Source: a virus. From it: DNA of 64,000 bases. Numbering within the stretch: position 1 is the stretch's first letter; every line of letters starts with the position of its first letter. Positions 10,600 through 56,743 of the stretch are shown here, piece by piece. The translations under genes and the position numbers were made by a program. The notes under the pieces are model-generated. The model was not told where the DNA came from and did no database searches. It saw nothing but the letters and a program-made list of their open reading frames with translations. Where the stretch lies: the IMG/VR virus record IMGVR_UViG_3300029258_003681, one strand, 5' to 3'.

Positions 10600-10611
10600 A
10601 GAGACCATTGG

Positions 10612-10639
10612 TTGACAAACCCGTTATAGCGGGTAACAT
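10612..10639 (+). promoter_or_regulatory. Sigma70-like promoter
   Basis: TTGACA-16 nt-TAACAT upstream of the cargo gene cluster. Confidence 0.55.
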
Positions 10640-10672
10640 ATCTGAGTAGATGATGTTTGAAGGGAAAAGATC

Positions 10673-11302
10673 ATGAGAAAATTGATTGAGAAATTGGGCA
10701 ATGCGATCGAGGGCGATGGGCAGGTTGAAGATGGCGCGGAGGATTCTGTATCTAGTGTGCCGAATGTGATGCGAAAGGGGTTGGTTGAGGAGCTGGGGGA
10801 TGCAATCGATGGTAAGCCCCAGGACGAGTCCACAGATGCCAACACTGTCGATGCGGCTGCATCTCTGGCCGAGGCGTCCAACCTGCTTGATGAGGAGGCC
10901 AAGACCGAGGGTGCGATCAAGGCTCTGCGCGACACTGACTACAGAGACCAGGACGCGTTCTTCAAGATGGTGCAGCTCCTCAAGGGGCTCGCCACCGTCA
11001 CTAAGGAGGACGAGCAGGCCAAGAAGTACATGGCGGCGGTGTCTGATGCGCTGACCACGGCGGCCAAGAAGGTACTTGGCGAGGACGCCGATGGCCTGGA
11101 CGAGGCGAAGCGCAAGTCGCAGGGAGAGATTCGCATCTTTTCCATGGGGGGATATGGTCAGCCCGAGAAATACGAATACAGCGTCAAAGAGCGCCAGGAT
11201 AGTGGCAAGACGGCGCTCGCTGACAGGGGATCTGCTCCGACGGCTCGGAAGGCATTCGACAAGGCGTTCAAGGTCTGCAAAGACGACTATGGATGGGAGT
11301 AA
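10673..11302 (+). CDS. Leader-family protein (MRKLIEK), putative head-packaged protein
   Basis: Shared N-terminal motif; internal repeat LIEKLGNAIEG/LVEELGDAIDG. Confidence 0.7.
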   Translation: MRKLIEKLGNAIEGDGQVEDGAEDSVSSVPNVMRKGLVEELGDAIDGKPQDESTDANTVDAAASLAEASNLLDEEAKTEGAIKALRDTDYRDQDAFFKMVQLLKGLATVTKEDEQAKKYMAAVSDALTTAAKKVLGEDADGLDEAKRKSQGEIRIFSMGGYGQPEKYEYSVKERQDSGKTALADRGSAPTARKAFDKAFKVCKDDYGWE

Positions 11303-11305
11303 ATC

Positions 11306-11698
11306 ATGATCACAAGAACGAAAAAACAGTTGCTCAGTGAGATGGTTCAGAACGCTGGTGTAGACCCCAAGAAGATCCTTGGTGATGATGCTGAAATTGA
11401 AGGGGATCCCGAGGAGGCTATCGAGCCAGTGGCAGAGGCCATGTACAAGGTGCCACGCAGCAAGAAGGATCTCGCGCCCAAGACCCCTGCAAACCTGAAG
11501 AAGCGGGCAGATCTTGCCAAGAGTGCGGTGGCGCACGTCGAGGCTGCGATCAAGGATCTGAGTAAGATTCCTCCCCTGGATTTTATGGGCGACATTTATC
11601 ACTTCTCCGAGCTGTTGGATCAAGCAATCGGTGGTGATGGAGGTGGTCTTAAGTGGCTGGCCAAGGCGTACGATAGGGATGCCAAGAAGGGAAAATGA
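11306..11698 (+). CDS. Hypothetical protein with EMVQNAGVDP N-terminus
   Basis: N-terminus paralogous to that of 11700..12200. Confidence 0.7.
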   Translation: MITRTKKQLLSEMVQNAGVDPKKILGDDAEIEGDPEEAIEPVAEAMYKVPRSKKDLAPKTPANLKKRADLAKSAVAHVEAAIKDLSKIPPLDFMGDIYHFSELLDQAIGGDGGGLKWLAKAYDRDAKKGK

Positions 11699-11699
11699 T

Positions 11700-12200
11700 A
11701 TGAGTCGCAAAGATCTGATAATTGAGGAGATGGTGCGGAATGCGGGTGTTGATCCTGGGCGCATCTTGGGCGGCGAAAATATCGGATCCGAGGAGCCAGT
11801 GGAAGAGGGCACCGTCAATTTCAAATTCTACCACGCGGCTAAGGATGCCGAGGATCGCTTCGAGAAGGCTCTCAGAAAGCAGTACGGCAAGGACTACCAG
11901 GACAAGAGGTACACTGGGAAGGGTTTCAACAAGGAGACCCAGGCGGCCTACGATGCGTTCCTGAAGGCCAGTGATGCGTGGCGCAATGAGACGCGTCGCG
12001 CGCGCGGGGAAAGTGTCGAGGAGGATAAAGGATTGTTGGGTGGGGTGATCCACATTATCAAAATGGGCGAGGATCGCTGGGTCGCTCGGATTGCCAAACC
12101 TCTGGGGGTTGCGTTCAAAGATTCCTTCAAGGGTGCGAGTGGCCATGAGGCCCTGATGAAAATGGCCAAGGATTGGTCCAAAACTGGTTTTATGGAGTAG
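11700..12200 (+). CDS. Hypothetical protein with EMVRNAGVDP N-terminus
   Basis: Start reassigned to ATG 11700; N-terminus paralogous to 11306. Confidence 0.7.
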   Translation: MSRKDLIIEEMVRNAGVDPGRILGGENIGSEEPVEEGTVNFKFYHAAKDAEDRFEKALRKQYGKDYQDKRYTGKGFNKETQAAYDAFLKASDAWRNETRRARGESVEEDKGLLGGVIHIIKMGEDRWVARIAKPLGVAFKDSFKGASGHEALMKMAKDWSKTGFME

Positions 12201-12215
12201 CGAACTCCAGTTCGC
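12200..12215. repeat. Dispersed palindrome GCGAACTCCAGTTCGC
   Basis: Overlaps the TAG stop and precedes the holin RBS. Confidence 0.85.
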
Positions 12216-12226
12216 GGGAGGAAGAT

Positions 12227-12592
12227 ATGGATTTGAACAGTTTGAAGTCGAAGAAGCTGCTTGTCACGTTGCTGGCGGCGGTTGGTATGGTCGTAAACTC
12301 GCTGCTTGGCAATCCTGTGGACGAGAAGACGGTCTACAGCGTGCTGGGTATCCTGGGGACCTATATCCTGGGCCAAGGCATAGCCGACCACGGGGCGCAG
12401 GGGGCAGCGAAGGCCGCAGAGCGGTCGATCAAAAAAGGCGCAGAAGTTGCGGCGGCGGTGACTGGTGTTCTTGGTCAGCGTCACGGCAATGGGCAGCCGG
12501 TTATCCACGATGATGAGGATGACGACGGTCCAAATTGGGATGATACATCCGAAGAGGACGAGGAAGATAAGCCGAAGGAGCTGCTCGGATGA
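12227..12592 (+). CDS. Putative holin
   Basis: SKKLLVTLL..., two TM helices, YILGQGIAD, acidic C-terminal tail. Confidence 0.7.
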   Translation: MDLNSLKSKKLLVTLLAAVGMVVNSLLGNPVDEKTVYSVLGILGTYILGQGIADHGAQGAAKAAERSIKKGAEVAAAVTGVLGQRHGNGQPVIHDDEDDDGPNWDDTSEEDEEDKPKELLG

Positions 12593-12867
12593 GAGATCTA
12601 CTGGAAAGACTGACGACAGAGGGTGTTCTTGGTGGCGGTATTTCTGTTGCCTATGTGTACAAGCTCCTCCACAAGATCCTGGGCAAGGATCAGTTCGGCA
12701 AGATCACAAAGAAGGGCAAGAGCATTACGATCGCCACGAAGGTGGATGCGGGGATGGACGGCCAGAAGCAGTTTGATAAATTTGCGGATGAGATCCAGAA
12801 GAAGCATCCCGATGCGAATGTGGACCATAAGTCTGGTGGCAAGGTGTGGACGATCCATCTTCCGTAG
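12589..12867 (+). CDS. Leader-family protein (MRDLLER)
   Basis: Shared leader; ATGA overlap. Confidence 0.7.
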   Translation: MRDLLERLTTEGVLGGGISVAYVYKLLHKILGKDQFGKITKKGKSITIATKVDAGMDGQKQFDKFADEIQKKHPDANVDHKSGGKVWTIHLP

Positions 12868-12875
12868 GAGGCGAC

Positions 12876-13301
12876 ATGAGGCAGTTGATTGAAAGGTTGC
12901 GGACACTTGGTGAGATGACGAATGCCGAGGCTGACAAGCTGGAGAAGGATGGTTTTGACCTTCGCAAGTGGGTCAAGATTTCAGGATGGAAGCCCGAGGA
13001 TGCCGAGCCGAGTTCGACCTTGATTGAGTCGCCAGACGGCTACTGGTTTCTTTATGGAGAGTTGGTGATTGATGCCGAGGAGGTTGAGATTGCTCTAGTG
13101 GCGCATGTCGACAAGTTCAGTCTGGCACAGCAAAAAGTGATGAAATCCAAGGGGATGAAAATAGATAAGGGGCGCGATTCCTTGGCGAGCAAATCGGTCA
13201 AGGTTGGTGATGTGCGAGATGTTAAAAAGGTCGGAAGCACTATCAAGAAGGTTGTGAAAGAGATGGCAGCGATCGTGAAGGCGGTCGAGAAAGCAAAATA
13301 A
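12876..13301 (+). CDS. Leader-family protein (MRQLIER)
   Basis: RBS GGAGG; shared leader. Confidence 0.7.
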   Translation: MRQLIERLRTLGEMTNAEADKLEKDGFDLRKWVKISGWKPEDAEPSSTLIESPDGYWFLYGELVIDAEEVEIALVAHVDKFSLAQQKVMKSKGMKIDKGRDSLASKSVKVGDVRDVKKVGSTIKKVVKEMAAIVKAVEKAK

Positions 13302-13304
13302 ATA

Positions 13305-13793
13305 GTGGCTGAATCTGTTCCCAAAGCGCCAGAGGTTTCTCCTCAAATCGTAGCCACGGAAACGGGCATGGCGATGGTGCGTGATCTGCTCCTGCGGATG
13401 GGGCGGATTAAGCGAGAGCTGGTATCTCCGAAGCCAACTGGTACGTCGGAGTATTCGATGATGTTGGTGGGTTCGCTGTTGAACCGTCGTCATCGTGACA
13501 TTGGGACGATACGGATTTATGTGACGGTTCCTGCGAACGGTGAGAATATCAAGTTCACGATCGAGTGGACGCGACATGCGTTTGGGTTCTGGTATCGCCA
13601 GGAGGTGATTTTGAAGGACGCTGTGGATGATCCTGAGCATGCGAACGTGCAAAAGCTGAGGACGGCGTTGGATCCGATCCAGTGGACGGCAGATGGAACG
13701 ACGCGAGTGAAATCGATGAATCGGATGTTCAAAAAAATAAAGAAGAGCCGAGTGCGGGATCGAGCATCGCGCGCGGGCTTGATGGTGGGATGA
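13305..13793 (+). CDS. Hypothetical protein
   Basis: GTG start, tight gene packing. Confidence 0.55.
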   Translation: MAESVPKAPEVSPQIVATETGMAMVRDLLLRMGRIKRELVSPKPTGTSEYSMMLVGSLLNRRHRDIGTIRIYVTVPANGENIKFTIEWTRHAFGFWYRQEVILKDAVDDPEHANVQKLRTALDPIQWTADGTTRVKSMNRMFKKIKKSRVRDRASRAGLMVG

Positions 13794-14830
13794 TGCTGAC
13801 GAAGATTCAACTGACTGTAGCGATACGCTACAACGCTACGCAGTGTGGGAAGCTCTACGATGTGGGCGATATGCCGTGGCCGTGGTCTGAGGCGAAGCCA
13901 GATTTGTTTGCGTGGGCGACGGCGAATTTTCAGCTGGAAAATCGGCTGACGGTTGATGGAAAGATGGGGCCGAAGACGTTCCGTGCGGTCATGAAGGCCG
14001 AGGGCGATACGTCTGTGGAGGTTCCGATCCCTCCGAAGGATCCGAGTTTACCCAAGCCTCCCACACCTCCTCCCTATGGGAAGCTGAGTGATTCCAAGTT
14101 TTCAAATGCGATTATCGTAGATGGTGAGCGCGTTGAGTTGCCGTCTGAGTTTTTGGCGGCTGGTATGACGGCCAGCAATTACCTGGAGGATGACGAGCCC
14201 CATTTCAAGCATGGTGAGCGCGTTGGTGAATTGATCCATTTTGTGCTGCATGAGACTTGTGGTAATACGGCCCAGGGATGCAAGAACACTCTCAAGAAAA
14301 AAGGATATGGAGTGCAGCTTATTCTGGCGCCGTCGGGTCATCTTTCTTGCCATGGCGATCTTGTACGCGATCGGATGGTCCATGCGAACCAGCTTAATGA
14401 TACGAGCTTTGGTATTGAGATAGTGAATCCGTACAATCCGATATTCGTGAACGACAAGGCGATCTGGTACAACACCCTGAAGCGGCTGTGGTGGACGTGG
14501 GTACCCGCTCTGAAGACGAGGAAGGGTATCAACAAGGGCATACAGTCCCTTCTTAAGCGCAGGGGTTTGAAGGCGGTTCCCAAGCGTTACGTTACGCCGA
14601 CTCCGCCACAGATGGCGGCGATTCGGTTGTTGGTGCCGTGGTTGTGTGAACTTACGAGTGTTCCTTATCGCTTCCCTACCAAGGGGCTGAACAAAAAGAA
14701 ACGAAAAATTGATGGGCTGACGATGAAGCCAAGGGGTCGCCCTGGGCCAGGCGTTGTCGCGCATCGTGATTTTGCATCGCACGCGGACGGGCGGTACATA
14801 CTTGAAGATCTACTGGTCCGCAAAGGATAG
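13790..14830 (+). CDS. Endolysin: peptidoglycan-binding domain plus Amidase_2-type amidase
   Basis: LTVDGKMGPKT (PG-binding); FVLHET, HANQLNDTSFGIEIVN, VVAHRDF. Confidence 0.85.
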   Translation: MMLTKIQLTVAIRYNATQCGKLYDVGDMPWPWSEAKPDLFAWATANFQLENRLTVDGKMGPKTFRAVMKAEGDTSVEVPIPPKDPSLPKPPTPPPYGKLSDSKFSNAIIVDGERVELPSEFLAAGMTASNYLEDDEPHFKHGERVGELIHFVLHETCGNTAQGCKNTLKKKGYGVQLILAPSGHLSCHGDLVRDRMVHANQLNDTSFGIEIVNPYNPIFVNDKAIWYNTLKRLWWTWVPALKTRKGINKGIQSLLKRRGLKAVPKRYVTPTPPQMAAIRLLVPWLCELTSVPYRFPTKGLNKKKRKIDGLTMKPRGRPGPGVVAHRDFASHADGRYILEDLLVRKG

Positions 14831-14874
14831 AATCAACATGTGTCGCTGAGGCGGCCAAAAAAGGAGAGAGAGAA

Positions 14875-15399
14875 ATGACTAGAAGAAATGCAGCAGACGC
14901 ACCGTCGGCCGACAGTATTCGAAACGCTGGTGCAATCCCGCAGGCTTCTCAAATTTCGAATGATTCGAATTCGGAAGGAGAGTCCGTGGCGGCTGTGCTC
15001 AACAACTTAGGCGACAAACTTCGTAAGACTGTGACGGCCCTCGACATTGTCACGCTTAACGACGAGCAAAGTGTGGCCCTGGGCGGGGATGCTCTCCACC
15101 AATGGGCTCCCGTGACGGCTGTCGTCCAGATAACGGGCGTGGGTGGTACCATCGCAGGAGATGCACAGATCACCATCGGCATCACGACTGGTGGTACGGA
15201 GATCTTGGCGGCGACGGCATTGACAGGGGCTGTCACCATCAATGAAATGCTCATTATCGATCTGAGTGCAGTGGCCAAACCTGCGATACCTGCCAATTCC
15301 ACCGTCTTCGTGAAGGTGACTTCGGCGGATTCGACGGGCACGGCTGGTTCGCTCGCGAGCGTGCATCTGATGGGCGAGATCATTGATACTGCTTCCTAG
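14875..15399 (+). CDS. Probable virion structural protein (beta-rich)
   Basis: Ala/Thr/Gly-rich beta pattern; RBS. Confidence 0.55.
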   Translation: MTRRNAADAPSADSIRNAGAIPQASQISNDSNSEGESVAAVLNNLGDKLRKTVTALDIVTLNDEQSVALGGDALHQWAPVTAVVQITGVGGTIAGDAQITIGITTGGTEILAATALTGAVTINEMLIIDLSAVAKPAIPANSTVFVKVTSADSTGTAGSLASVHLMGEIIDTAS

Positions 15400-15426
15400 A
15401 AGCAGTTGGCTGAAGTAGTATGAAGG

Positions 15427-15455
15427 GGGGACGGCAGCTTTGGGGCTGCCTCCCC
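15427..15455 (+). terminator. GC-rich hairpin, possible terminator
   Basis: GGGGAC-GGCAGC...GCTGCC-TCCCC; weak U-tract. Confidence 0.4.
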
Positions 15456-15492
15456 TGGATCTTTGTGTGACTGGTTTGATCAGGAGGACACG

Positions 15493-15996
15493 ATGGACGA
15501 ACGGTCGATGAGGGAGATGCGATATCTGGCTGGGATGGATATGCTGTTGGAATCAGGCCCTGAGAATGCCGAGGAGATTGATGAGGAATCTCAGGCGTTG
15601 GCCGAGGCTGTTGTTTCGATCAATCAGAAGCTCAAAGATGCCGAACAGGCTTTTCTGGGCAATGTGCTGGTGGTTGCGAGGAAGTATCTTCGGCAGCAGA
15701 ACAGGGGACTCAAGATGGAGGTGATCCGCATTCCTCCGATGGGCGGAGGCGGATCGATTGGTGGTGTTCGTTTTGTCGGTGATAATTGGCAGCTTGATGC
15801 AATGATAGATCGCAAGGGTGATAAGTGGGAATTTTGGAAAGTTGGCCGTATGTCGGTAGGGATCTCTGAGCCTGTCGAGATTGAGGATACGGCCAAGGTT
15901 CACGATCTTCATCCTCAGTCGATAGCGATGGGGCTCAATGCGCTCTATGGTGCTTTGGTCGAGAAGAATGAAGAGGCTCGTCATAAGGCGAAATGA
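15493..15996 (+). CDS. Hypothetical protein with MREMRYLAG...LLES propeptide-like N-terminus
   Basis: RBS AGGAGG; acidic N-terminus. Confidence 0.65.
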   Translation: MDERSMREMRYLAGMDMLLESGPENAEEIDEESQALAEAVVSINQKLKDAEQAFLGNVLVVARKYLRQQNRGLKMEVIRIPPMGGGGSIGGVRFVGDNWQLDAMIDRKGDKWEFWKVGRMSVGISEPVEIEDTAKVHDLHPQSIAMGLNALYGALVEKNEEARHKAK

Positions 15997-16004
15997 GGTT
16001 ATTG

Positions 16005-16646
16005 ATGAGGGATTTGATCGAGAGCCTGGGTAAATTCATCGCCGAGAGCAAGGCGAAGAAGGTTCGGAAGCGTCGCACGCGCAAGCGCGCAAGTGAGGCC
16101 GATAAGATGATGGCCAAGCAGATCGGTGCGGCCATGAAGGCTCGGATCTCCGAGATTCCTCGCATGCTTCCAAGAGGGTGGGTCATCACTCAAGCATTGG
16201 CGCTGGACAAGCAGATCTTGGGCAAGCGCGGCGAGGCATACATAGGGAATGAGCTGGAGGCTGATTATGGATATCCAATCGGCATCAGCGACGAGTTGAT
16301 CGAGACGGCCACTGCCGACTTTGGTCTGTCCTGCTATCCCTACGGGAATGGTGATGGTGTTGTTTGCAGTGTTACGGTGGACAACTTCAGCCCAGATGAG
16401 AGCGACCCTGGTGTGGTGATGGTTCCCGTGCCACCGAGAGATGGCATAACGATCGAGGCGGAGTGGAAGCGTAAGAAGAAGGCATTTGATCCGAGCAAGA
16501 ATCTCTGGCCTCTCATCAAGACGGTGATGAAGGAGCTGAAGAAGCAGATGCCAGAGTACGATGAGTTGGATCCCGACTATGGCAAGAGCGAGACGGAGCG
16601 GTACTTCGGCAGCGAGTCCGCATATTGGCGATGGAAGGAAGGCTGA
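16005..16646 (+). CDS. Leader-family protein (MRDLIES...FIAES)
   Basis: Shared leader; alternative start at 15993. Confidence 0.7.
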   Translation: MRDLIESLGKFIAESKAKKVRKRRTRKRASEADKMMAKQIGAAMKARISEIPRMLPRGWVITQALALDKQILGKRGEAYIGNELEADYGYPIGISDELIETATADFGLSCYPYGNGDGVVCSVTVDNFSPDESDPGVVMVPVPPRDGITIEAEWKRKKKAFDPSKNLWPLIKTVMKELKKQMPEYDELDPDYGKSETERYFGSESAYWRWKEG

Positions 16647-16987
16647 TGAAACATCTTACAAACCAGCTTCAGGATTTCATTGCGGATGCACCGAATCCTG
16701 AGCGCAGGAAGATCTTGTCGGCGACCGAGGAACGGTTGTTTCGGTCGATGAAGACACAGGGAGAGCGGGCCACGAAGGGGCGCGAGATCGGCAAGACAGT
16801 TTTTGAATCCAAGGTCAAGGCTGGGGTGTCGTTCCTGATGATCATGGAAGGACGGCATGCGATGTCGGTGGGCGCGCAGGTTGCTCGTCGTTTCAATGGG
16901 GCTCGTGATGTGGATTCTGTCGAAGTTGTAAAGACCAAGAATGGTGCGTGCGTAATATTGCGCCCGAAGGCGAATGCGGATGCGTGA
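16646..16987 (+). CDS. Hypothetical protein (divergent leader MKHLTNQLQDFIAD)
   Basis: TGATG overlap. Confidence 0.6.
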   Translation: MKHLTNQLQDFIADAPNPERRKILSATEERLFRSMKTQGERATKGREIGKTVFESKVKAGVSFLMIMEGRHAMSVGAQVARRFNGARDVDSVEVVKTKNGACVILRPKANADA

Positions 16988-17303
16988 TCTGATCGAAGGC
17001 AGACGTTTGCTCATGGAGGACGGTAGTATTACTGTGTTTGGTTTTGTCCGTGGGAATGCGTTGGACTTTGGTAGGATACTGAAAAGATTTATGCCCAAGA
17101 GGGGTGCTGTTACGCGGATGAAGAAGGCGCAGTCGGGAGAGTATCACGTGGTTGGCACGACGATGTTTAAGTTGGTTGGCATGGAAGAGTTGATCAATGC
17201 TGCGACGGCTGCTGGGCAGAAGGGCTCTAATGGTATGTGGACCGAAGCCAAGCGGTACATGAGCTTCGTTCCAGGTTTTTTGGAGAACGTTTCAAAGGAA
17301 TAG
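16980..17303 (+). CDS. Leader-family protein (MRDLIEG...LMED)
   Basis: Shared leader. Confidence 0.65.
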   Translation: MRDLIEGRRLLMEDGSITVFGFVRGNALDFGRILKRFMPKRGAVTRMKKAQSGEYHVVGTTMFKLVGMEELINAATAAGQKGSNGMWTEAKRYMSFVPGFLENVSKE

Positions 17304-17306
17304 AAA

Positions 17307-17579
17307 ATGAAAAAGATCATCGAAAATTTGACGGCCAAAGGTGCTGAAAATCTGGAAGAGGCGAGCTTCGACAACAAGAAGGTCTATAGTTCATTGAAGG
17401 TGGCGATTTCGTCAGCTGGTTCTGCGGTCAAAGCGCTCAAGTTGATCCCACCGTCGAAGTGGGGCAAGGCCAACAAGAAGGAGTCCCGAGAGATTGACGA
17501 TCTCATCGTCAAGCTCAACCAGATCAAGCGGGACGCTACCAATCTCGCTATTGGCGTTGGCGTTACGGCTGGCAGGTAA
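17307..17579 (+). CDS. Leader-family protein (MKKIIEN...LEEA)
   Basis: Shared leader. Confidence 0.65.
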   Translation: MKKIIENLTAKGAENLEEASFDNKKVYSSLKVAISSAGSAVKALKLIPPSKWGKANKKESREIDDLIVKLNQIKRDATNLAIGVGVTAGR

Positions 17580-17581
17580 TT

Positions 17582-17869
17582 ATGCGGAGGCTCCTCGAAG
17601 AGAAGGCCAAGAAGGGTCTGGAGAGGTTCAAGGAGATCCACGGGATCGTAAGCACGGGTGACGGCTATGGTCTTGGTTTCTCGGAGAAGGAGCAGAAGTG
17701 GTACGGCTGGAGTCATCGGGCCATAGAGGGTTTTGGGATCGGCGACATGATTTTCGAGGTAAATTTCGGTGATGACAAGACGTTGTTTAGGCAACATGGC
17801 AAGAAGCCTATAAAAAACATGGATGACGCCAAGGAATCTGCGCGGAGATTCGCAAAATACGTGTCATGA
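17582..17869 (+). CDS. Leader-family protein (MRRLLEE)
   Basis: Shared leader; KWYGWSHRAI.GFGIGD domain. Confidence 0.7.
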   Translation: MRRLLEEKAKKGLERFKEIHGIVSTGDGYGLGFSEKEQKWYGWSHRAIEGFGIGDMIFEVNFGDDKTLFRQHGKKPIKNMDDAKESARRFAKYVS

Positions 17870-17889
17870 GGACGCGAAAGGATGGTGTG

Positions 17890-18234
17890 ATGCGAGATGT
17901 AATTGATAAAATGCAAGCTAAGAATATCGAGGGGATCGATGAGGCAGCTTCAGGTGCGGCATCGACGCGGCTGATCAAGTCTGCCACTGACTTTATCAAG
18001 AAGCAGGCGAAAGAGCTGGACGGGCTCGCTGGAGGGATGCAGTCGCGGGCCAAGAAGGCGAAGAGCTGGACGGTTGCGAATGGTTTGTATCATGCAGCAT
18101 CACGGATCGAGGACCATCTTCGGCGCGCGGTCGACGAGGCGGAGAAGGCAATCGAGAGCATTCCAGAGGAGGGAGCCTCGGACAGCGTGTTCCGTGACTG
18201 GGCGATGCGGATGAAGGACGGTTACTATCGATGA
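17890..18234 (+). CDS. Leader-family protein (MRDVIDK...IDEA)
   Basis: Shared leader; alternative start at 17866. Confidence 0.65.
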   Translation: MRDVIDKMQAKNIEGIDEAASGAASTRLIKSATDFIKKQAKELDGLAGGMQSRAKKAKSWTVANGLYHAASRIEDHLRRAVDEAEKAIESIPEEGASDSVFRDWAMRMKDGYYR

Positions 18235-19016
18235 CGACGACATCGGGTAATATTGCGGGCACTGTGCAGCCTTTTGTTGTTGCGGGCCACGGGACACGTC
18301 CGTGGCCGTATGGCAGCGCAAGGGTCTTCAAGATTGACGAGATCAAGCCTGGTAAGAAAAAGAAGAGGGAGAAGCTCTACTACGGCCAGGTGGGGATGCT
18401 TTATCTAAACACCAGGGGTCAGGTCCAGGAGGCGTTTACCGAGCCTGTTGGCAAGAAGGGCGACAATCTGTGGAAGATTCCTAGCCTGGGCAAGATTGGT
18501 GTATGGAGGACCGTGCGCGGGAAGCGGCATTTCTTTCCCGTTGATGGGTCCAGTCCTATTCCTAAGATTCGTGGCGGTGAGGAAAAGAAGGGCGCGCCCA
18601 AGGGTGCGAAGGCTCAGGGTGGCGGGAGTGCTCCCAAGAAAAAAGGAATCCTGGGCAGGATCATGGACAAGATCTCAAGCGCGCTCGGGGGTGGCGGTGG
18701 GGCTGCATCCAAGGTTAAGGATGTAAAAGGGCCGTCCAAGAAGTCTGGTGGTGCGAAGAAAACCAGTGGTGGCAAGGGTAAAAAGGGCAAGAAAGAGAAA
18801 AAAGCGGAGAGCAAGATCCCAGGCCGCGACGATACTTTGAACCAGACTGATAGTATGATTTTGAAGGCCAGTCGTAGCAAGAGTGGCAAGCGTTTGATGC
18901 CTGCGCTCAAGGGGATGCAGGCTGCATTGAGATCTGATGATCCTGTTGCGTTCAAAAAGGCTGAAGCATCTCTGGCCAAGGCCACTAAAAAGCTGGCAAA
19001 GAAGAAAGGTCGCTAG
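18231..19016 (+). CDS. Lys/Gly-rich basic protein with WRTVRGKRHFF motif
   Basis: W.T..G...F motif of the kind found in phage head-associated proteins; highly basic. Confidence 0.6.
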   Translation: MTTTSGNIAGTVQPFVVAGHGTRPWPYGSARVFKIDEIKPGKKKKREKLYYGQVGMLYLNTRGQVQEAFTEPVGKKGDNLWKIPSLGKIGVWRTVRGKRHFFPVDGSSPIPKIRGGEEKKGAPKGAKAQGGGSAPKKKGILGRIMDKISSALGGGGGAASKVKDVKGPSKKSGGAKKTSGGKGKKGKKEKKAESKIPGRDDTLNQTDSMILKASRSKSGKRLMPALKGMQAALRSDDPVAFKKAEASLAKATKKLAKKKGR

Positions 19017-19802
19017 ATGCTGAGGCGCCTTACTGACGAACTGGGGTTCGTTCTTTTAGAGTCAGCGGGGCGTTTCAATCTTGACATGCGCGCGTACGAG
19101 GATGCGCTTCGTGATGAGATTGATGATTTGTACGCTTGGTCTGAGCGGCGCCATGGCGAAGGGAATGTCGACTTCGACCCCGACAAGGAATTCAAGGTAA
19201 GATTTACAGATTCCCTCAAGAATATGCACAAGCTTGGCAGGGGGTTGGCGCGGACCGTGGACAAGATTGGACGCGATGTGAATCTGACGGTTCGTCCGCA
19301 GTACAGCACCGACAACATATATGCGCCAGTGACTCACGCGTATGTGATGGTCCATAAAGGGAGTAAGCCTGCAAAAAATGCCCCTGGTTTTACTTACTTT
19401 GGGCCGCGCGAGGTTGACGACGTGTTGGACGCGGGGGATTCTGACTTTTTTGATGATCAGGATGTCGAGATTGCCTATTTCCAACTGGTGAACGAGATTC
19501 GTCAGCCTGGCAGCACGCTCAAGGCTGGGAAGCCTACTACGGTCTACACGGCTCGGCCCGCGAAGGATCGCAGGATTTATCAGGGGGTGAAGGCTGTCCC
19601 GTCGGGTATTTTTGTGACGAATAGTCCAGACCGTGCCGAGGGGTTTGGGCGTGAATTTGGGGGGACCGAGGGTAGGGATTTGTGGAAAATTGTGGTAGAT
19701 AGTAAGAATCTCGTGCAGACGCTCAAGTCGGGGCGAACGCGCGATTATCAGATCGTGGGCAAGGGCAAAGTCCCGATCAAGAGTATCGAGCGGTTGGCTT
19801 GA
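19017..19802 (+). CDS. Leader-type protein with C-terminal ADP-ribosyltransferase-like fold (putative)
   Basis: VYTAR / GIFVTNSPDRAEGFG / RDYQI motif spacing. Confidence 0.5.
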   Translation: MLRRLTDELGFVLLESAGRFNLDMRAYEDALRDEIDDLYAWSERRHGEGNVDFDPDKEFKVRFTDSLKNMHKLGRGLARTVDKIGRDVNLTVRPQYSTDNIYAPVTHAYVMVHKGSKPAKNAPGFTYFGPREVDDVLDAGDSDFFDDQDVEIAYFQLVNEIRQPGSTLKAGKPTTVYTARPAKDRRIYQGVKAVPSGIFVTNSPDRAEGFGREFGGTEGRDLWKIVVDSKNLVQTLKSGRTRDYQIVGKGKVPIKSIERLA

Positions 19803-19817
19803 TGAAAGGGTAGGACG

Positions 19818-20399
19818 ATGAGCAGAATCAATGATCTGATGGAAAGCATCGAGACGGTGATGGACGAGGAAAAGTGGAGCGCCAAGGTGAAAACCAAGTG
19901 GAGTCCGCCCGAGGGATTTTTCAAGCAGGATGCGGGCAAGATTGCATCAGGTTTGATGAAGGAGTCCAAGGATCAGGCCCAGGCCATGGAGCGTCTCAAC
20001 TTCTACATCAATCGCGCGGGAAAGAATCTTAGTGCGGAGGATAAGGCCCGCTTGGAAGATGCGAAAAAGAAGCTGGCTGCGATGGGGAAGGATGAGAGCA
20101 AGGAATCCGAGAGCGACGGCTCTGTGGAAGAAAAGGGCGACGCGGAGGCTTTGGCCGAGGCGATCGGCGAGTCGCTGATCAATCGCATGGTCAAAGCGAT
20201 GTGGGAGGCGCCCCAATTTCAAAAGTTGCTCAAGGCCAACGAGAAGTATATTGCCAAGCGTGCAGGTTTGGAGGATTCCATACGGATGGGCGTGAAGAAT
20301 GCGCTGATCTTGGCGCTGGTTCAGGCTGATGCGTCGCTGAGTGGGGCGCTCAGTGGTCAGGCGAAGAAGGAGACGCGACAGGCTGTCGCCAGCGTGTAG
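19818..20399 (+). CDS. Hypothetical protein with acidic propeptide-like segments
   Basis: MSRINDLMESIE..MDEE; RBS. Confidence 0.65.
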   Translation: MSRINDLMESIETVMDEEKWSAKVKTKWSPPEGFFKQDAGKIASGLMKESKDQAQAMERLNFYINRAGKNLSAEDKARLEDAKKKLAAMGKDESKESESDGSVEEKGDAEALAEAIGESLINRMVKAMWEAPQFQKLLKANEKYIAKRAGLEDSIRMGVKNALILALVQADASLSGALSGQAKKETRQAVASV

Positions 20400-20407
20400 G
20401 AGGCAAT

Positions 20408-20767
20408 ATGGGTGCTATCAAATGGGAGCCCAGGCCATTTCCTGCGAAGGTTCTACGAGTTGTCGATGGGGATACTCTTGATCTGATGATCGACTGCGGA
20501 TTTGGTGTTCATACTCGACAGCGTGTCCGTCTTGCCCGAATTGATACTCCTGAAGTTCGCGGTGAGGAGCGTCCCGAGGGTATCAAGGCGAAGGCATTTG
20601 TGGAGGATTTCCTTCATGGCATTTCACAGGTGCTTGTGACTACTCAAAAGGACAAGGGGAAATTCGGCCGATATATCGGTGAGATCGTGGTCATCCGTGA
20701 AGGCGAAATGATCAACTTGAGCGATCGGCTCCTGAAAGAGGGTCTCGCAGAGGAGTACAAGGGATGA
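20408..20767 (+). CDS. Thermonuclease (SNase-like) family nuclease
   Basis: VVDGDTL, RVRLARIDTPE, KGKFGRYIG. Confidence 0.9.
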   Translation: MGAIKWEPRPFPAKVLRVVDGDTLDLMIDCGFGVHTRQRVRLARIDTPEVRGEERPEGIKAKAFVEDFLHGISQVLVTTQKDKGKFGRYIGEIVVIREGEMINLSDRLLKEGLAEEYKG

Positions 20768-21003
20768 AAAAGCTGATCGAGCAGAGGTTGGATCTTCGGA
20801 ATATTCGGAAGAAGATGGCCGACGACAACAAGATTCTCCAGAAGCACAAAAAAGGGATCATCAAGTGGTTCACTTCTGACGGCAGGAGGGATGAGGACGA
20901 GGCCGAGTCGTTCTTCAAGGCCATAGTGAAGGCCAGCAGTGATCTGTTTCGTCAGCGTCGGCGTGCTGTTTTGCAGAATATCGAGGATGGGACGATTCGA
21001 TAG
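20764..21003 (+). CDS. Leader-family protein (MKKLIEQ)
   Basis: Shared leader. Confidence 0.65.
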   Translation: MKKLIEQRLDLRNIRKKMADDNKILQKHKKGIIKWFTSDGRRDEDEAESFFKAIVKASSDLFRQRRRAVLQNIEDGTIR

Positions 21004-21015
21004 AAGGAGGGTAAG

Positions 21016-21240
21016 ATGCGAGAATTGATCGAGAGGAAATCTGCTGCAAAGAAGTCGGTTGATGGACAGGACATGAGGGAATCATACTATAGCGCTTCGG
21101 ACGGAATATATGGGATTGAGGGAGCGCTAAAAAGCAATGTTTTTGACGGCGATTCCAAGTTGCATGGTGCGTTCAAGAAGCTCATGAAAAGCTTTGATGA
21201 ATTCGGGAAGCAGCTCAATGCACGCTATGATTGGGATTAG
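21016..21240 (+). CDS. Leader-family protein (MRELIER)
   Basis: RBS AAGGAGG; shared leader. Confidence 0.7.
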   Translation: MRELIERKSAAKKSVDGQDMRESYYSASDGIYGIEGALKSNVFDGDSKLHGAFKKLMKSFDEFGKQLNARYDWD

Positions 21241-21243
21241 TCG

Positions 21244-21606
21244 ATGAAAATTCTTACTGCAAAACTGGGCGAATTTCTGGAGGCGATCGAACACAAGTTC
21301 GTCGACGCCAATGCGAAGCCGAATCTGAAGGCGATTGCCAAGGAACTGAAAAAAGTCCTGTCCAAGGACTACAACGTCCAGGCGTGGAAGGACGATGAGG
21401 TTGTCAACGCGCAGAAGGGGTTCCGTGCGGCCGAGATACGAGTCAGTGGCGCTGGGATCGATGTGCGGTACTGGAAGGATGTCAACAAGCGTGGCGGCGC
21501 TCCAGATGCCCAGGAGCGGTTCAACACGCGATCGAGCGGGGTTGTGCATGTAGGGGATAGTGATGTTCTTGATGCTATCGCGTGGATCAAGAAGAAACTT
21601 CGGTAG
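21244..21606 (+). CDS. Hypothetical protein (divergent leader ...LGEFLEA)
   Basis: Tight gene packing. Confidence 0.6.
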   Translation: MKILTAKLGEFLEAIEHKFVDANAKPNLKAIAKELKKVLSKDYNVQAWKDDEVVNAQKGFRAAEIRVSGAGIDVRYWKDVNKRGGAPDAQERFNTRSSGVVHVGDSDVLDAIAWIKKKLR

Positions 21607-22431: not shown

Positions 22432-22434
22432 CAC

Positions 22435-22506: not shown

Positions 22507-22511
22507 CTCAG

Positions 22512-22584
<73 letters not shown>

Positions 22585-22587
22585 CAT

Positions 22588-53122: not shown

Positions 53123-53729
53123 GCGAACGAGTATTGCAGCAAAGGCGGCATCGCTGAAGAAGGCGGGCTTTTCTCCAGCGATCACGATTGTCATCATCGT
53201 TCTCAGCATGCCTGGCTTCTGGGGGTTGTTCGATGACACGGATGACAAGGCTTTGAACGCTATTGAGATGGCGTATCCCGTGTTGGCGAACGAGGTGGAG
53301 CATATCAAAAAGCAGGCAGATCGACAGCGCGAAGCTGATCAGAAACTGTATGATGAGATTCGTGCGTTGCGACAGAGAATTGATATGATGATGATGGGTG
53401 CCGTTGGGTTTTCTGGTGATTTTGCTTTGGAGGGTGCGCCGAGTGCTCCTCCTTCGGTGGCGTTGACGCCTCCTCCTGTGTTGTTTCCGACGGCGCTGGA
53501 CGGTGACGCAGATGGTGACGGCGATGAAGATGAGGTGCCAGTAAGCGAGGATCTTCCTGCTGTCGGGACGCCATCGTCGCTGAAATCTGTGACATCCATT
53601 TCCACGACAAGCAAGGAGCCGAAGACGCTCGATGGATTGATTCAGCAGCAGAAGGTAATTCCAAGGCGAAAACCGCTGCCTCTTTTGAAGGATTTGTTGG
53701 GTAGTTCGGGCGGGAAGGATTCCAAATGA
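53115..53729 (+). CDS. Membrane-anchored coiled-coil protein
   Basis: N-terminal TM AITIVIIVLSMPGFWGL, then coiled coil and Pro/acidic tail. Confidence 0.6.
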   Translation: MGERTSIAAKAASLKKAGFSPAITIVIIVLSMPGFWGLFDDTDDKALNAIEMAYPVLANEVEHIKKQADRQREADQKLYDEIRALRQRIDMMMMGAVGFSGDFALEGAPSAPPSVALTPPPVLFPTALDGDADGDGDEDEVPVSEDLPAVGTPSSLKSVTSISTTSKEPKTLDGLIQQQKVIPRRKPLPLLKDLLGSSGGKDSK

Positions 53730-54106
53730 AGTGGGATGAATTACTGAAAAATATGGTGAAGAGTGCTGGTGTCGTGGGTATGAAGAAGGCGGAGCAGGCC
53801 ATGAACCGTCTCCAAGGTGAGATGGATGAGCCATGGAAGCGTGCGATCATGGACATGGTTGGGGACGCGGTTGAGAAATACGGCTGGGAGGGCGTGGAGC
53901 GTGTCCAGGAGGTGGTTGATCAAGTGGCGGCTGGCAAGGCTCCTGATCTGTCTTTCGCCTCCCTGAAGGCCCGCAGTGACGTTCTGGCGTTTATGCAAAA
54001 TGCAGAGGCTGACGAAAAATCCAAGGCTAGGGACTTCTTCTCGGTTGTGGGACAGGCTTTGGGTGTGGTATTAAAAGTAGTGATCCGTGGATTGATAAAG
54101 GGATAG
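53726..54106 (+). CDS. Hypothetical helical protein
   Basis: ATGA overlap. Confidence 0.6.
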   Translation: MKWDELLKNMVKSAGVVGMKKAEQAMNRLQGEMDEPWKRAIMDMVGDAVEKYGWEGVERVQEVVDQVAAGKAPDLSFASLKARSDVLAFMQNAEADEKSKARDFFSVVGQALGVVLKVVIRGLIKG

Positions 54107-54109
54107 CAG

Positions 54110-54703
54110 ATGAGGAAACTGATTGAACGTCTGTCATTGATTGCCGAGGACTATTATGCGGCAAAATCGGGGAGGATTTCCGATTATATTGATGGGTGGC
54201 AGGTCAGGGGTGACAAAGCATACGAAGATTCTATGCCTATCATGATTGATGTTTCTCAGCTGTGGCCATATCGAGAGTATACATGGACGCGAGAGACTGC
54301 CCGTTCTGGGTATGCGCGAGTTGGTGGTAAAAAGTCTGATCTTCCTGGGGAATTGAAATGGGATGCTATGAAGTCCGACCTGAAGAAGAATGGTTGGGAT
54401 CGGACGGAGCCGTTGTACTTTGAGATCGGTCGTTCTCGGGGGGCAAAGGTTGGTGAAGGAAATCACAGGCTTGCTCTGGCTAAGGAGATTGGAATTCGGA
54501 AGGTTCCTGTGGTTTTTTTGTTTAAGGTTGGCAGTGTCACGAAGAGCAAGAAGCGCGACTCAAAAGTTGATATTTCGAAGGCTGCCGTTCGGGATGTTGT
54601 CAAGAGAGATGCCAAGAAGCCAGTTGCCAAGCAGGAGTATAAGCGTGGTGAGGATCCTGGAATGGATGACATCCTTGATCTTCTGCTGGGGAAGGGTGCG
54701 TAA
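54110..54703 (+). CDS. Leader-family protein (MRKLIER...IAED) with ParB/sulfiredoxin-like domain
   Basis: LKSDLKKNGW..EPL, VGEGNHRLALAKEIGIRKVPV. Confidence 0.75.
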   Translation: MRKLIERLSLIAEDYYAAKSGRISDYIDGWQVRGDKAYEDSMPIMIDVSQLWPYREYTWTRETARSGYARVGGKKSDLPGELKWDAMKSDLKKNGWDRTEPLYFEIGRSRGAKVGEGNHRLALAKEIGIRKVPVVFLFKVGSVTKSKKRDSKVDISKAAVRDVVKRDAKKPVAKQEYKRGEDPGMDDILDLLLGKGA

Positions 54704-55194
54704 TGCCAAAGTGGGTATCAGGTCCTGACGGGGAGAAAGCCTGGAAGAAGGCGAAGGGGATTGTTGGCAAGGAGTACGGCGCTGGGCTTGAGAAGAGCAA
54801 TCCCGATAAGTTCTATTCCTTGGTGACTACCATTTACAAGAATGTCTGCAAGAGCCCCGATTATGATTGCGGGATCGGTGAGGGGATTCAGCGTGGAGTT
54901 GGTAGGCTGCGAGGGCTGACGGAGCAGTTGGCTGTTTTTTGCGAGGCGATTTCTAGCAAGAAGATCCGCGAGGCCGAGCAGATGAAAGGCTGGCACGAGC
55001 AGGACGCGAAGTACCTACGCAGGGAAGCCAGCAAGCAAAAGGGAACGCAGGCCAAACAGACGATCAAGGCGGCCGATATGCATGATGCGGCGGCTGAGGC
55101 TTTTCGTGTAGTTTTGAATAGCAAGTCGGCCAAGGATTTGAAACGGGCGAAAGAGGCGCGGAAGGCAGCGCTATTGTTTGCGAGGAATCGATGA
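54703..55194 (+). CDS. Hypothetical protein
   Basis: W.KAK....K.Y N-terminal domain, then internal LTEQL..FCEA propeptide-like segment. Confidence 0.6.
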   Translation: MPKWVSGPDGEKAWKKAKGIVGKEYGAGLEKSNPDKFYSLVTTIYKNVCKSPDYDCGIGEGIQRGVGRLRGLTEQLAVFCEAISSKKIREAEQMKGWHEQDAKYLRREASKQKGTQAKQTIKAADMHDAAAEAFRVVLNSKSAKDLKRAKEARKAALLFARNR

Positions 55195-55730
55195 CCATAT
55201 TGAGAGAATTGAGTGAACGGCTGGCGACTTTTGTCAATATTGGGAATCCGAAGGCGCGTGCGATAGCCGTATATGATCTGGCTACGAAGGTCAGGAATTT
55301 CGGTGGCGATCTGGCGATGCGGCTCGCGGACAAAAGTGATCCGTATGGTGAGATGGCATCGCGGCATCCAAAGGTGAAGAGCACGGGCAAGAAGATGATT
55401 TCGGCGATGGAGGCTTTTTCCAAGGCGGTGTTTGACACCGAGAAGTCGATCGACATCTCCCCGCGCGTGCGCGGGCGCTTGCGTGAGGAGCGCATCTTTG
55501 CGGCGATGATGCAGCTGGGGAGGTCGTTTGAAGAGATCAATGCGCTGACCGACGAGCAGATTGACGAGTTGATGGAGAAGTCGCAGCCGAAACTGAACAA
55601 GTACGATCCTGGTAGTTTGTTGGGGTGGACCGTCCATCTCCTCAGCAAGGAGGGGCTTGACGATGCGGCCGACGAGGTTCGAAAGGTTTCTCGCCATGTT
55701 TCGCAGGCTTGGCAGCAGAGAGAACGATAG
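55191..55730 (+). CDS. Hypothetical protein (divergent leader MTILRELSERL)
   Basis: ATGA overlap. Confidence 0.6.
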   Translation: MTILRELSERLATFVNIGNPKARAIAVYDLATKVRNFGGDLAMRLADKSDPYGEMASRHPKVKSTGKKMISAMEAFSKAVFDTEKSIDISPRVRGRLREERIFAAMMQLGRSFEEINALTDEQIDELMEKSQPKLNKYDPGSLLGWTVHLLSKEGLDDAADEVRKVSRHVSQAWQQRER

Positions 55731-55765: not shown

Positions 55766-56065
55766 ATGAAAGAGCTAATCGAAAAAAAGAAGGGTCGTCC
55801 TGTAAAAGGGGCTGGTAGTGCGCGTGGGACCAAGAAAGAAGTGCGTCAGGCTATCGAGATGCATACTCCTTTCAAGATTGATGGTGTGAGTGAACATGCG
55901 GGAACGTTGATGTATTCTGTGTCGATTCCGCGTAGCGTTCACAATAAGGCTAGGATTTATGTTCATCCTGATGGAGAGGCTTCGTTTAGTTCCGAAGTCG
56001 AGCTTCCTCGCCAAAAGGATATTCGTGATCTTGGAGCGCTCATGCGTATAGTTGGTATCAAGTAG
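55766..56065 (+). CDS. Leader-family protein (MKELIEK)
   Basis: Shared leader. Confidence 0.65.
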   Translation: MKELIEKKKGRPVKGAGSARGTKKEVRQAIEMHTPFKIDGVSEHAGTLMYSVSIPRSVHNKARIYVHPDGEASFSSEVELPRQKDIRDLGALMRIVGIK

Positions 56066-56075: not shown

Positions 56076-56351
56076 ATGAAAGAGCTGATTGAAAAGGCGA
56101 CTCGTGGAGAAAAGATTGACGACGAGGAGACGATCGCGAAGCGTGTAAAGGATGAGCTGAAGGCGGCCAAAGTTCGTCGTGTGAGTCGTGCCACTGATGA
56201 ATTGTATATCGATGCTGGGATTGATGAGGCATCAGTTTTTTTTGATCCCAAAACAAACAAAGCATCTGTTAGGATGGTAATCGTTCGGGAGGCGGATGCA
56301 GATGGGAAGGCGATTGCTGCCCTTCTGAAAAAACATGGAGTACCCTACTAA
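56076..56351 (+). CDS. Leader-family protein (MKELIEK)
   Basis: RBS GGAGAG; shared leader. Confidence 0.7.
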   Translation: MKELIEKATRGEKIDDEETIAKRVKDELKAAKVRRVSRATDELYIDAGIDEASVFFDPKTNKASVRMVIVREADADGKAIAALLKKHGVPY

Positions 56352-56743
56352 TGCGTGAACTCATTGAAAGAAAAATCCAGGAGGCCAAGACTGGCTGGTC
56401 CCCGAAGTTGGACGCCGAGGGATGGCAGCTTTATGAGCCCGAGACAAAAGCTGAGCGGACCAAAACTGCGAAGGCTGTCACGGCATTGAATAGTGCGATG
56501 GCGAAATTCAAGAAGGCTGTTCGCAAGAAGCTCTCGAAGATTGCGGAGTATGACACGAAGGTGGTGGGGCCGATCGCTGGCGAGTTGTTCGATGCTATTG
56601 TGGCGCCGGTCCATGCGAAATTCGATTCTGTTGGGGCTGACGATACGCCTTCTCGTGAGATCTCGACTCTCGCGGCCATTCAGATGGTGAAGGATATTTA
56701 CGGAAAGACTGGCTGGACTAAGCTCGGCGATCATATCGGTTGA
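56351..56743 (+). CDS. Leader-family protein (MRELIER..IQEA)
   Basis: TAATG overlap; shared leader. Confidence 0.7.
   Translation: MRELIERKIQEAKTGWSPKLDAEGWQLYEPETKAERTKTAKAVTALNSAMAKFKKAVRKKLSKIAEYDTKVVGPIAGELFDAIVAPVHAKFDSVGADDTPSREISTLAAIQMVKDIYGKTGWTKLGDHIG

Follow-up and report, generated by a model that had tools for sequence, protein, structure and literature searches.

A short N-terminal leader shared by unrelated small proteins of an uncultured tailed phage: a candidate capsid-targeting and cleavage signal

Why would some 25 small genes of one phage, whose products are otherwise unrelated, begin with almost the same six to eight residues? The question is raised by a stretch of viral DNA of 64,000 nucleotides (IMG/VR record IMGVR_UViG_3300029258_003681; 'the window' below means this whole stretch), which is part of the genome of a large tailed phage. 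A preliminary description, made from the letters of the window, had noted at positions 10,673 to 21,606 a family of small proteins with a common M[RK]x[LI][IL]E leader, and had proposed that this leader sends a diverse cargo into the phage head, to be trimmed there by a protease and injected into the host. We examined the leader in the window and in related genomes, and lean towards a reading in which it would be a capsid-targeting and cleavage propeptide like that of T4, serving an unusually large and variable set of cargo proteins.

The leader and its occurrence

A search for the pattern ^M[RK].[LIVM][LIVM][ED] at every ATG of the window gave 15 matches on the plus strand and one on the minus strand. 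All 15 plus-strand matches lie at or near the starts of open reading frames (ORFs) of 74-213 residues, and these ORFs form two clusters, at 10.6-21.6 kb (cluster 1) and 53.7-57.9 kb (cluster 2), all on the plus strand. Enrichment of the motif is borne out by a shuffled control, with 100 dinucleotide-preserving shuffles yielding 0.84 ± 0.89 matches (maximum 4) against the 15 observed. Among the 72 called genes of at least 50 residues, 13 start with the motif, where 0.04 would be predicted from its frequency inside proteins (binomial 5e-29). Phage T4, taken as an outside control (54 kb), has no true gene start with the strict motif, and only gp67 (MEGLIEA) fits a relaxed form. The ten cluster 1 starts of the preliminary description (10673, 12589, 12876, 16005, 16980, 17307, 17582, 17890, 20764 and 21016) are all ATG codons, with the coordinates and peptides it gave, and the four further starts it had announced for cluster 2 were found (54110, 55766, 56076 and 56351) together with its 'internal' copy, at 57569. 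The several divergent versions it had mentioned are also there: about ten more genes carry divergent or longer forms and, with these counted beside the 15 strict ones, about 25 of the 31 cluster genes bear some version of the leader. The observation of a shared leader is confirmed and is highly significant.

An AGG/GGA-type ribosome-binding site precedes every motif start by 6-14 nt, and the synonymous codons that spell the shared residues are mixed (Arg2 is AGA, AGG, CGT, CGG or CGA; Leu4 is TTG, CTA, CTG or CTC). The sequences downstream of the leader had been called unrelated, and all-against-all BLASTP of the bodies agrees, finding no significant similarity except within the weak pairs 56076/57569 (E 0.004) and 11306/11700 (E 2e-5), the latter being paralogues that do not have the strict motif. 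Because the synonymous codons are scrambled and the bodies unrelated, selection acts on the peptide, not on DNA or RNA. The leader is a module attached to unrelated bodies. A DNA-level element, such as a promoter, a ribosome-binding cassette or a recombination box, was also considered and was rejected on account of the scrambled synonymous codons and the unconserved upstream DNA.

A search of IMG/VR with the tail-tube protein found 14 loci of 63-89% identity, and the leader recurs downstream of the tube genes of these relatives, on different proteins and on the coding strand only. Two complete, terminally redundant relatives were compared, G001 (176 kb) and the more distant G002 (157 kb). In G001 there are 21 motif matches, almost all of them after the tube genes or after the baseplate and fibre genes, and none on the other strand; the motif opens 14 of its 236 genes, where 0.36 would be expected (3e-18). 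Seven real matches were found in G002, at corresponding places. A position-weight matrix also detects shifted leaders in the window, at 55191, 19017 and 56757, and its extra matches in G001 again lie mostly within the two clusters.

The consensus of 54 non-redundant leaders from the window and the relatives is M-[RK]-[EKD]-L-I-E-[RK]-[KLM], with Leu4 in 47, Ile5 in 39, Glu6 in 49 (Asp6 in the other 5) and Arg or Lys at position 7 in 38. It describes a two-turn amphipathic helix with i/i+4 charge pairs (R2-E6 and E3-R7) and a hydrophobic face made of L4, I5 and L8. A longer class takes the form M[RK]xLIExLGxF[IL]xE followed by Ser, Gly or Ala; the proteins from 16005 (MRDLIESLGKFIAE and then S), 10673, 56757 and 21244 are examples, and such long leaders hold a second site, which reads FIAE, LIAE, LLME or VLLE. 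Over the first 25 residues the density of [LI]xE is 3.6-3.9 per 100 residues in cluster proteins compared with 0.7-1.1 in other proteins, a 4-5-fold excess, and the rest of the chain is at background. The preliminary description had further listed hydrophobic-x-E sites shortly after the leader; all those it quoted are present, but at residues 8-22 such sites are enriched only to a modest degree (Fisher p 0.03 in the window and 0.01 in G001).

Head genes of the relatives and the N-termini of T4 core proteins

The prohead protease had been expected outside the window. Genes of the Peptidase_S77 family, to which T4 gp21 belongs, are found in all five of the larger relatives (E 3e-16 to 8e-14), with no matches in 14 control genomes, so the expectation is borne out in the relatives' genomes. 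G001 also encodes a T4-type portal protein (PF07230, E 2e-55), the gene for which is interrupted by inteins, and a major capsid protein homologous to T4 gp23 (28% identity, E 7e-35). Intein or homing-endonuclease domains occur in G001 at three minus-strand loci (L022:3878-7747, L022:7751-11041 and L022:12091-15006), the carriers being the portal gene, a SNF2-type helicase and a third ORF of 1096 residues.

The G001 protease ORF (541 residues, L022:163-1788, minus strand) consists of the S77 domain and a Glu/Ala/Lys-rich helical tail of about 340 residues that contains nine [LI]xE sites. This tail looks scaffold-like, and the ORF would then be a protease-scaffold fusion in a T4-type phage. A 330-residue protein encoded between the portal and protease genes contains 3.6 [LI]xE per 100 residues, where the genome averages 1.1, and is presumed to be a core protein. 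The N-terminal region of the G001 capsid protein contains ILE13, LLE38 and LLE58, about where gp23 is trimmed. In four of the five relatives the protease itself starts with MPNLLIES or MPQVLIEA; that of the fifth, G005, starts with MNKIQELTES, without the motif.

These starts were set beside the N-termini in the T4 record: MNEPQLLIET for gp21, MEGLIEA for gp67, MLKEQLIAEA for gp22, MLLIPET for gp68, MAKINELLRES for gp24, MELITELFDE for Alt and MKTYQEFIAEA for the internal proteins (IPs) IPII and IPIII. In T4, gp21 cleaves after the Glu of L/I-x-E, the 10-19-residue propeptides of the IPs target the scaffolding core and are then removed, and the internal proteins of T-even phages are diverse, with the targeting sequence as their sole shared part (PMC9026906; PMC3012670; PMC5694885). 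The capsid targeting sequences of IPI, IPII, IPIII and Alt go back to Mullaney and Black 1996, as reviewed in PMC9026906, PMC3012670 and PMC5694885, and a LIE-9 site has been noted near the N-terminus of gp21 itself (PMC9026906). The leader of the window is thus built like the N-terminus of a T4 core protein, with gp67 and gp21 as the nearest, and not like the IP sequence.

The tagged proteins and their genes

The cluster proteins are small and basic, with a median length of 130 residues and a median isoelectric point (pI) of 9.0 in the window and 9.4 in G001, compared with 4.8 and 5.4 for the other genes; T-even internal proteins have likewise been described as small and basic. No significant Pfam or PHROGs hit was obtained for the proteins with a strict leader, and most bodies are without a family; the ESM Atlas was uninformative for 16005 and 54110. 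Two families were modelled. That of 19017-19802 has 16 members (15 aligned), the orthologues of which swap MLRRLTDELGFVLLES, MRKIIESRRVLLES and MRTLLERMDELDVLILES at the start, with a nearly invariant Glu15 at the boundary of leader and body. In its AlphaFold model, residues 1-17 form a helix with a predicted local distance difference test score (pLDDT) below 50, and the body from residue 20 has block-mean pLDDT mostly of 85-95. In the family of 56351-56743 (11 members), M1, L4 and I5 are invariant, and the model has a low-confidence helix at residues 1-16 (pLDDT <50), a linker and a confident helical bundle. Block-mean pLDDT is mostly 80-95 for the bodies of both families, and the leaders are thus modelled as helices detached from the folded bodies.

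The C-terminal domain of the 19017-19802 protein (about residues 170-261) is modelled as an ADP-ribosyltransferase (ART) fold, a call based on the AlphaFold model (pLDDT 83). Foldseek ranks Tpt1/KptA, CC0527 and the Rhs toxin TreTu highest (probability 0.97-0.99, E 1.5e-3 and weaker). The VIA-align list consists almost entirely of ARTs at middling Z of 7.7-5 and includes TreTu, diphtheria toxin, Tpt1, PARPs, Arr and pertussis toxin S1. The family has invariant R180 (YTARP), T201 and Q245 (DYQ), with a spacing like that of the ART motifs, and no catalytic Glu is evident in the alignment.

Two further bodies are found well beyond these phages. A module of about 65 residues in the 17582 protein (..EQKWYGWSHRA..GFGIGD..), for which no Pfam name was found, occurs in 982 cluster representatives at E of 1e-3 or below, nearly always at the C-terminus behind other N-terminal parts, in proteins of 57-1638 residues; in G001 it is carried elsewhere in the genome by a leaderless protein of 156 residues (55% identity, E 1e-25). 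The DUF3175 protein of 19818-20399 has a 14-residue extension ahead of the Pfam domain, at which bacterial-type members begin, and many phage members have extensions of 10-19 residues in the same style. A hydrophobic-x-E ends at most four residues from the conserved Trp in 37 of the 42 members with an N-terminal extension (homologues P0018-P0098). DUF3175 is also present in the jumbo phages phiRSL1, BcepSauron and BCSR5, in several Xanthomonas phages and in the Thermus phage phiLo.

Of the cluster genes, about one third are without a homologue in the whole of G001 (11700, 12876, 16980, 17890, 20408, 20764, 21016, 21244, 54110 and 55766), whereas the structural proteins are 70-89% identical. 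Such turnover is what would be expected of arms-race cargo.

Cluster 1 starts with the leader gene 10673..11302 (209 residues; MRKLIEKLGNAIE and then GDG), which has homologues in the relatives and, like the other leader-bearing genes of the cluster, is on the plus strand. Its product contains two tandem leader-like copies, one at residues 1-17 (MRKLIEKLGNAIEGDGQ) and one at residues 33-47 (MRKGLVEELGDAIDG; residues 33-50 read MRKGLVEELGDAIDGKPQ). The paralogous genes 11306-11698 and 11700-12200 follow, with divergent leaders that include KKQLLSEMVQNAGVDP and RKDLIIEEMVRNAGVDP, and then two strict-leader genes, 12589..12867 (92 residues; MRDLLERLTTE before G) and 12876..13301 (141 residues; MRQLIERLRTLGE before M). 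The gene at 13305..13793 has candidate starts at GTG 13305, ATG 13368 and ATG 13374, the last of which begins a leader-like MVRDLLLRMG. A longer divergent N-terminus, MDERSMREMRYLAGMDMLLE followed by SG, is found at 15493..15996 (167 residues), and the long leader at 16005..16646 (213 residues) is MRDLIESLGKFIAE, SK and then the basic KKVRKRRTRKR. A divergent leader (MKHLTNQLQDFIAD; 16646..16987, 113 residues) is succeeded by strict ones at 16980..17303 (107 residues; MRDLIEGRRLLME before DG, with an alternative ATG two codons upstream, at 16974), 17307..17579 (90 residues; MKKIIENLTAKGAENLEE before AS), 17582..17869 (95 residues; MRRLLEEK, with residues 30-95 forming the widespread C-terminal module) and 17890..18234 (114 residues; MRDVIDKMQAKNIE, GIDE and then A). 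The gene with the ART fold (19017..19802, 261 residues) has a long divergent leader, MLRRLTDELGFVLLE and then SAG, and the DUF3175 gene (19818..20399, 193 residues) has the extension MSRINDLMESIETVMDE followed by EKW ahead of its domain. The cluster closes with two short leader genes, 20764..21003 (79 residues, MKKLIEQR) and 21016..21240 (74 residues, MRELIERK), and a divergent long leader at 21244..21606 (120 residues; MKILTAKLGEFLE, AIE and then H).

Interspersed with these are genes without a leader. Probably not cargo are a membrane protein (12227-12592), a peptidoglycan-binding and Amidase_2 lysin (13682..14830, plus strand; PF01510, E 1.5e-6) and a Staphylococcal-nuclease homologue of 119 residues (20408..20767, plus strand; PF00565, E 6e-9). 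A Lys/Gly-rich protein of 261 residues and pI 10.6 is also leaderless (18231..19016, plus strand); its N-terminal part is fused to the family of the 19017 gene in one relative.

Cluster 2, also on the plus strand, begins with a gene of divergent N-terminus at 53726..54106 (126 residues; MKWDELLKNMVKSAGVVG, like the ..MVQNAGVDP class of 11306 and 11700) and a leader gene at 54110..54703 (197 residues; MRKLIERLSLIAE before DY). At 55191..55730 (179 residues) the leader is shifted by three residues, MTILRELSERL, with a position-specific score of 11.7, above the 99.99th percentile of internal 8-mers. Strict leaders are found at 55766..56065 (99 residues, MKELIEKKKGRP), 56076..56351 (91 residues, MKELIEKATRGE) and 56351..56743 (130 residues; MRELIERKIQE before A, conserved in 11 orthologues). 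The gene 56757..57356 (199 residues) has a divergent long leader, MRRDFVEELGAFIGIEPLME followed by GEE, where its G001 orthologue starts with MKKLMEKLGQFIGVEPLMEG. The last leader gene, 57569..57886 (105 residues, MKEIIEKKLEE), has its own ribosome-binding site; no stop codon separates its leader from an upstream in-frame ORF of 70 residues that begins at 57284, so that the leader may mark either a true start or an internal copy, and the interval 57284-57886 may represent a fusion or translational coupling. The G001 counterpart of this leader (at about 25132 in window orientation) is MKKII*KK, codon 6 being an in-frame TAG.

Around the clusters, the window encodes a tail sheath (5564-8704), two tail-tube proteins of the T4 gp19 type (9509-10039 and 10060-10599; PF06841), a gp5/VgrG-like spike (35125-36105) and large proteins of the baseplate and fibres (36.9-50.8 kb); it also has two tRNA arrays (21987-23515 and 61644-63250), with 28 genes in all. 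The clusters include the lysin, and the tRNA arrays lie at the cluster ends. Megablast of cluster 1 (10600-21700) against 50,697 phage records gave no match. A scan for sigma-70 promoters and terminators over 5-24 kb stayed within chance expectation, and the T4 late promoter TATAAATA has zero occurrences in the window. Separately, the sheath (1046 residues) contains an insert at about residues 494-650 that resembles part of a 1032-residue fibre/baseplate protein (36% over 151 residues, E 1e-18) and also the adjoining 257-residue protein (43% over 100 residues); the genes concerned lie at 5564-8704, 8725-9498, 44447-45079 and 45121-48219. Between 24000 and 28000 the AT skew is strongly negative (-0.35 to -0.44) and the GC skew is lost, and a gene caller trained on the plus strand gave only odd ORFs there.

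What the leader may do, and how it compares with known systems

With the motif and its statistics, the selection on the peptide, the modular attachment, the T4-type head machinery of the relatives and the matching N-termini of their protease and of T4 core proteins all shown from the sequences, we infer docking, cleavage, packaging and injection along the following lines. The leader would form a short amphipathic N-terminal helix outside the fold of the protein, and during prohead assembly this helix would dock the protein onto the scaffolding core. A gp21-type serine protease would then cut after the Glu of the embedded L/I-x-E, that is after LIE at residue 6, with a further cut at residues 13-20 in the long leaders. 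The freed protein, small and mostly basic, would stay in the head with the DNA and enter the next host with it. This capsid-targeting and cleavage idea, already put forward in the preliminary description, fits the S77 protease of the relatives with its own LLIE, their T4-type portal and capsid, the N-termini of T4 core proteins, the detached helices, the small basic proteins and the ART fold; it is less new than had been implied, because the principle is already established for T-even phages. The preliminary interpretation as a whole is partly supported; for its suggestion of a bank of anti-defence or host-takeover effectors, the basis is one fold assignment and the gene turnover between relatives.

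Several observations weigh against capsid targeting and cleavage. No head genes lie within the 64-kb window, and the protease, portal and capsid are known only from relatives, whose tail tubes are 63-89% identical. The capsid protein is at most 31% identical to that of any deposited phage and there is no cultured close relative; this low identity therefore places the group on a deep, uncultured branch of the T4 superfamily. The leader consensus M[RK]xLIE[RK] does not align with the T4 IP sequence MKTYQEFIAE, with which only the FIAE of 16005 coincides. A cut at LIE would take off six residues only and would be followed by Arg or Lys in 38 of the 54 leaders, and enrichment of the second hydrophobic-x-E site is no more than modest (p 0.01-0.03). 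Exposure to the protease might have left the cluster proteins with fewer [LI]xE in their bodies; a search for such a depletion found none. In DUF3175 the hydrophobic-x-E could belong to the domain and not be a cleavage site; because it is so general there (37 of 42), this case was counted as suggestive only. Leaderless and probably non-virion genes (the amidase, the membrane protein and the nuclease) are also present within the clusters.

An amphipathic helix with charge pairs and a hydrophobic face suits any helix-in-groove interaction, and the leader could instead dock onto a partner outside the virion, perhaps a common hub of phage or host (chaperone, protease adaptor, RNA polymerase or ribosome), in which case the genes would serve host takeover inside the cell and their products would never be packaged. 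Most bodies are indeed ORFans, and a sigma-70-like site, TTGACA-16-TAACAT (10/12), is found just upstream of the first leader gene, at 10612-10639 in the 74-nt gap that follows the tube gene. However, this site is no more than expected by chance for the region and is absent in G001, where the gap is 10 nt, and the cluster genes succeed the tail and baseplate genes with gaps of 0-12 nt or overlaps. Docking of this kind would leave unexplained the near-absolute Glu6 (49 Glu and 5 Asp of 54), the match to T4 core proteins and to the start of the protease itself, and the [LI]xE excess confined to the first 25 residues, and we regard it as unlikely. A shared start might also be the remnant of common descent, left on local duplicates that diverged fast but kept their N-terminus, perhaps for translation initiation or folding. 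The tandem gene arrays, the detectable paralogue pairs 11306/11700 (E 2e-5) and 56076/57569 (E 0.004) and the two leader-like copies within 10673 would agree with such a history, and giant phages do have large paralogous families of head proteins, for example the 20 members in SPN3US (PMC5694885). It is at odds with at least three unrelated folds behind one leader, as is already indicated by bodies of distinct families (the ART fold, DUF3175, the helical bundle and the 65-residue C-terminal module), the same bodies being found elsewhere without the leader. The scrambled codons, GC-rich Arg codons among them, argue against an effect of mRNA or of AT-richness, and major virion components (the sheath and tube of the window and the capsid protein of G001) start without the leader. 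We hold descent alone to be a quite improbable account.

The position of the clusters in the tail block would find an explanation if the leader loaded proteins into the tail or baseplate, as in extracellular contractile injection systems, the cargo of which is encoded beside structural genes and carries N-terminal loading signals. Cluster 1 begins 74 nt past the second tail-tube gene, and cluster 2 is placed after the baseplate and fibre genes. Adjacency to tail genes says little, however, because nearly all genes are on one strand (240 of 244 in G001). In T4, moreover, alt is the neighbour of baseplate genes 54 and 48, and ipI is close to tail genes, yet the products of both are packaged in the head. 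The T4 tRNA cluster separates ipI from ipII and ipIII, which adjoin it and lysozyme e. Because the T4 ip and alt genes show the same neighbourhood, a place in the tail block is no argument against head packaging. The lumen of a phage tail tube is filled by the tape-measure protein, and the L-I-E core together with the matching N-terminus of the protease points to a head protease. With terminal repeats, 157-176 kb of sequence and genes for portal, protease and capsid, the relatives are complete phage genomes and so not tailocin-like, and the window carries 28 tRNA genes; we regard loading into the tail as very improbable.

If the leader works as a capsid-targeting propeptide, as in T4, the injected proteins of uncultured phages could be read from their sequence. 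We would go only tentatively, and with some doubt, as far as to call the eight-residue leader a sequence-readable label of the whole injected protein set in a clade of uncultured T4-type phages. Such a set, of about 25 tagged proteins per genome with one third replaced between close relatives and an enzyme with an ART fold among them, would be the largest tag-defined phage 'effector set' known, on a minimal, removable packaging tag of six residues. Taken together, the tagged proteins would then offer candidates for anti-defence and host-takeover functions, most of them without a known family. The practice, known from T4, of marking arbitrary proteins for the capsid would be ancient and widespread in the T4 superfamily, and a cargo set could reach dozens of proteins. 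N-terminal Arg and Lys are secondary N-degrons in many bacteria; since, in about 70% of cases, a cut at LIE would expose one of them, a short life of the injected proteins in the next host might be built in. A removable tag of 6-8 residues with a matching protease would also make a compact tool for protein packaging and delivery.

Among known systems, a diverged gp21 homologue processes inner-head and ejection proteins of phiKZ, 201phi2-1 and SPN3US after Glu, and prohead targeting is ascribed to their propeptides (PMC5694885, PMC7411985, PMC10052503). These phages would resemble ours in having many Glu-processed head-internal proteins and large head-protein families (20 paralogues in SPN3US), but the motif cut there is S/A/G-x-E, the propeptides are mostly longer than 100 residues with no common short leader, and the families are true paralogues. 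The Dar anti-restriction proteins of phage P1 are packaged via N-terminal signals (PMC9024508, PMC12810830). There, as might be so here, anti-defence proteins enter the head during morphogenesis through N-terminal determinants, but they do so in an ordered dependency chain (Hdf, DarA), with no shared short motif and no gp21-type processing logic. Encapsulins and contractile injection systems share with the proposed role of the leader the principle that a short transferable peptide sends unrelated cargo into a phage-derived container. Encapsulin cargo tags are usually C-terminal and are not removed, the loading signals of injection systems are longer, disordered and without a fixed motif, and neither involves a maturation protease.

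The T4 core proteins gp67, gp21, gp22 and gp68 are the closest match in sequence, gp67 having its L-I-E at residues 4-6 exactly like the leader. Those are scaffold components that get degraded, whereas the proteins here are basic with folded bodies and therefore look like retained cargo and not scaffold. The IP/Alt system of T4 is similar in more respects: a short N-terminal peptide is common to unrelated, small, basic proteins and contains or ends in L/I-x-E, the gp21 cleavage motif; head genes of the gp20/gp21/gp23 type are present in the lineage, among the relatives; the gene set varies among relatives; and one cargo has an ART fold, like Alt, with a lysin and tRNAs as neighbours. Packaged Alt of T4 is an ADP-ribosyltransferase with an N-terminal propeptide. 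The systems differ in the leader (M[RK]xLIE[RK] here, MKTYQEFIAE in T4), in the length of its conserved core (6-8 residues against 10-19) and in the number of tagged genes per genome (about 25 against 4-5), and the lineage is distant, with a capsid protein 28% identical to gp23. What would be new, by a judgement only a little in its favour, is the T4 capsid-targeting principle at work in an uncultured lineage far from T4, by means of another, shorter leader and with about five times more tagged genes.

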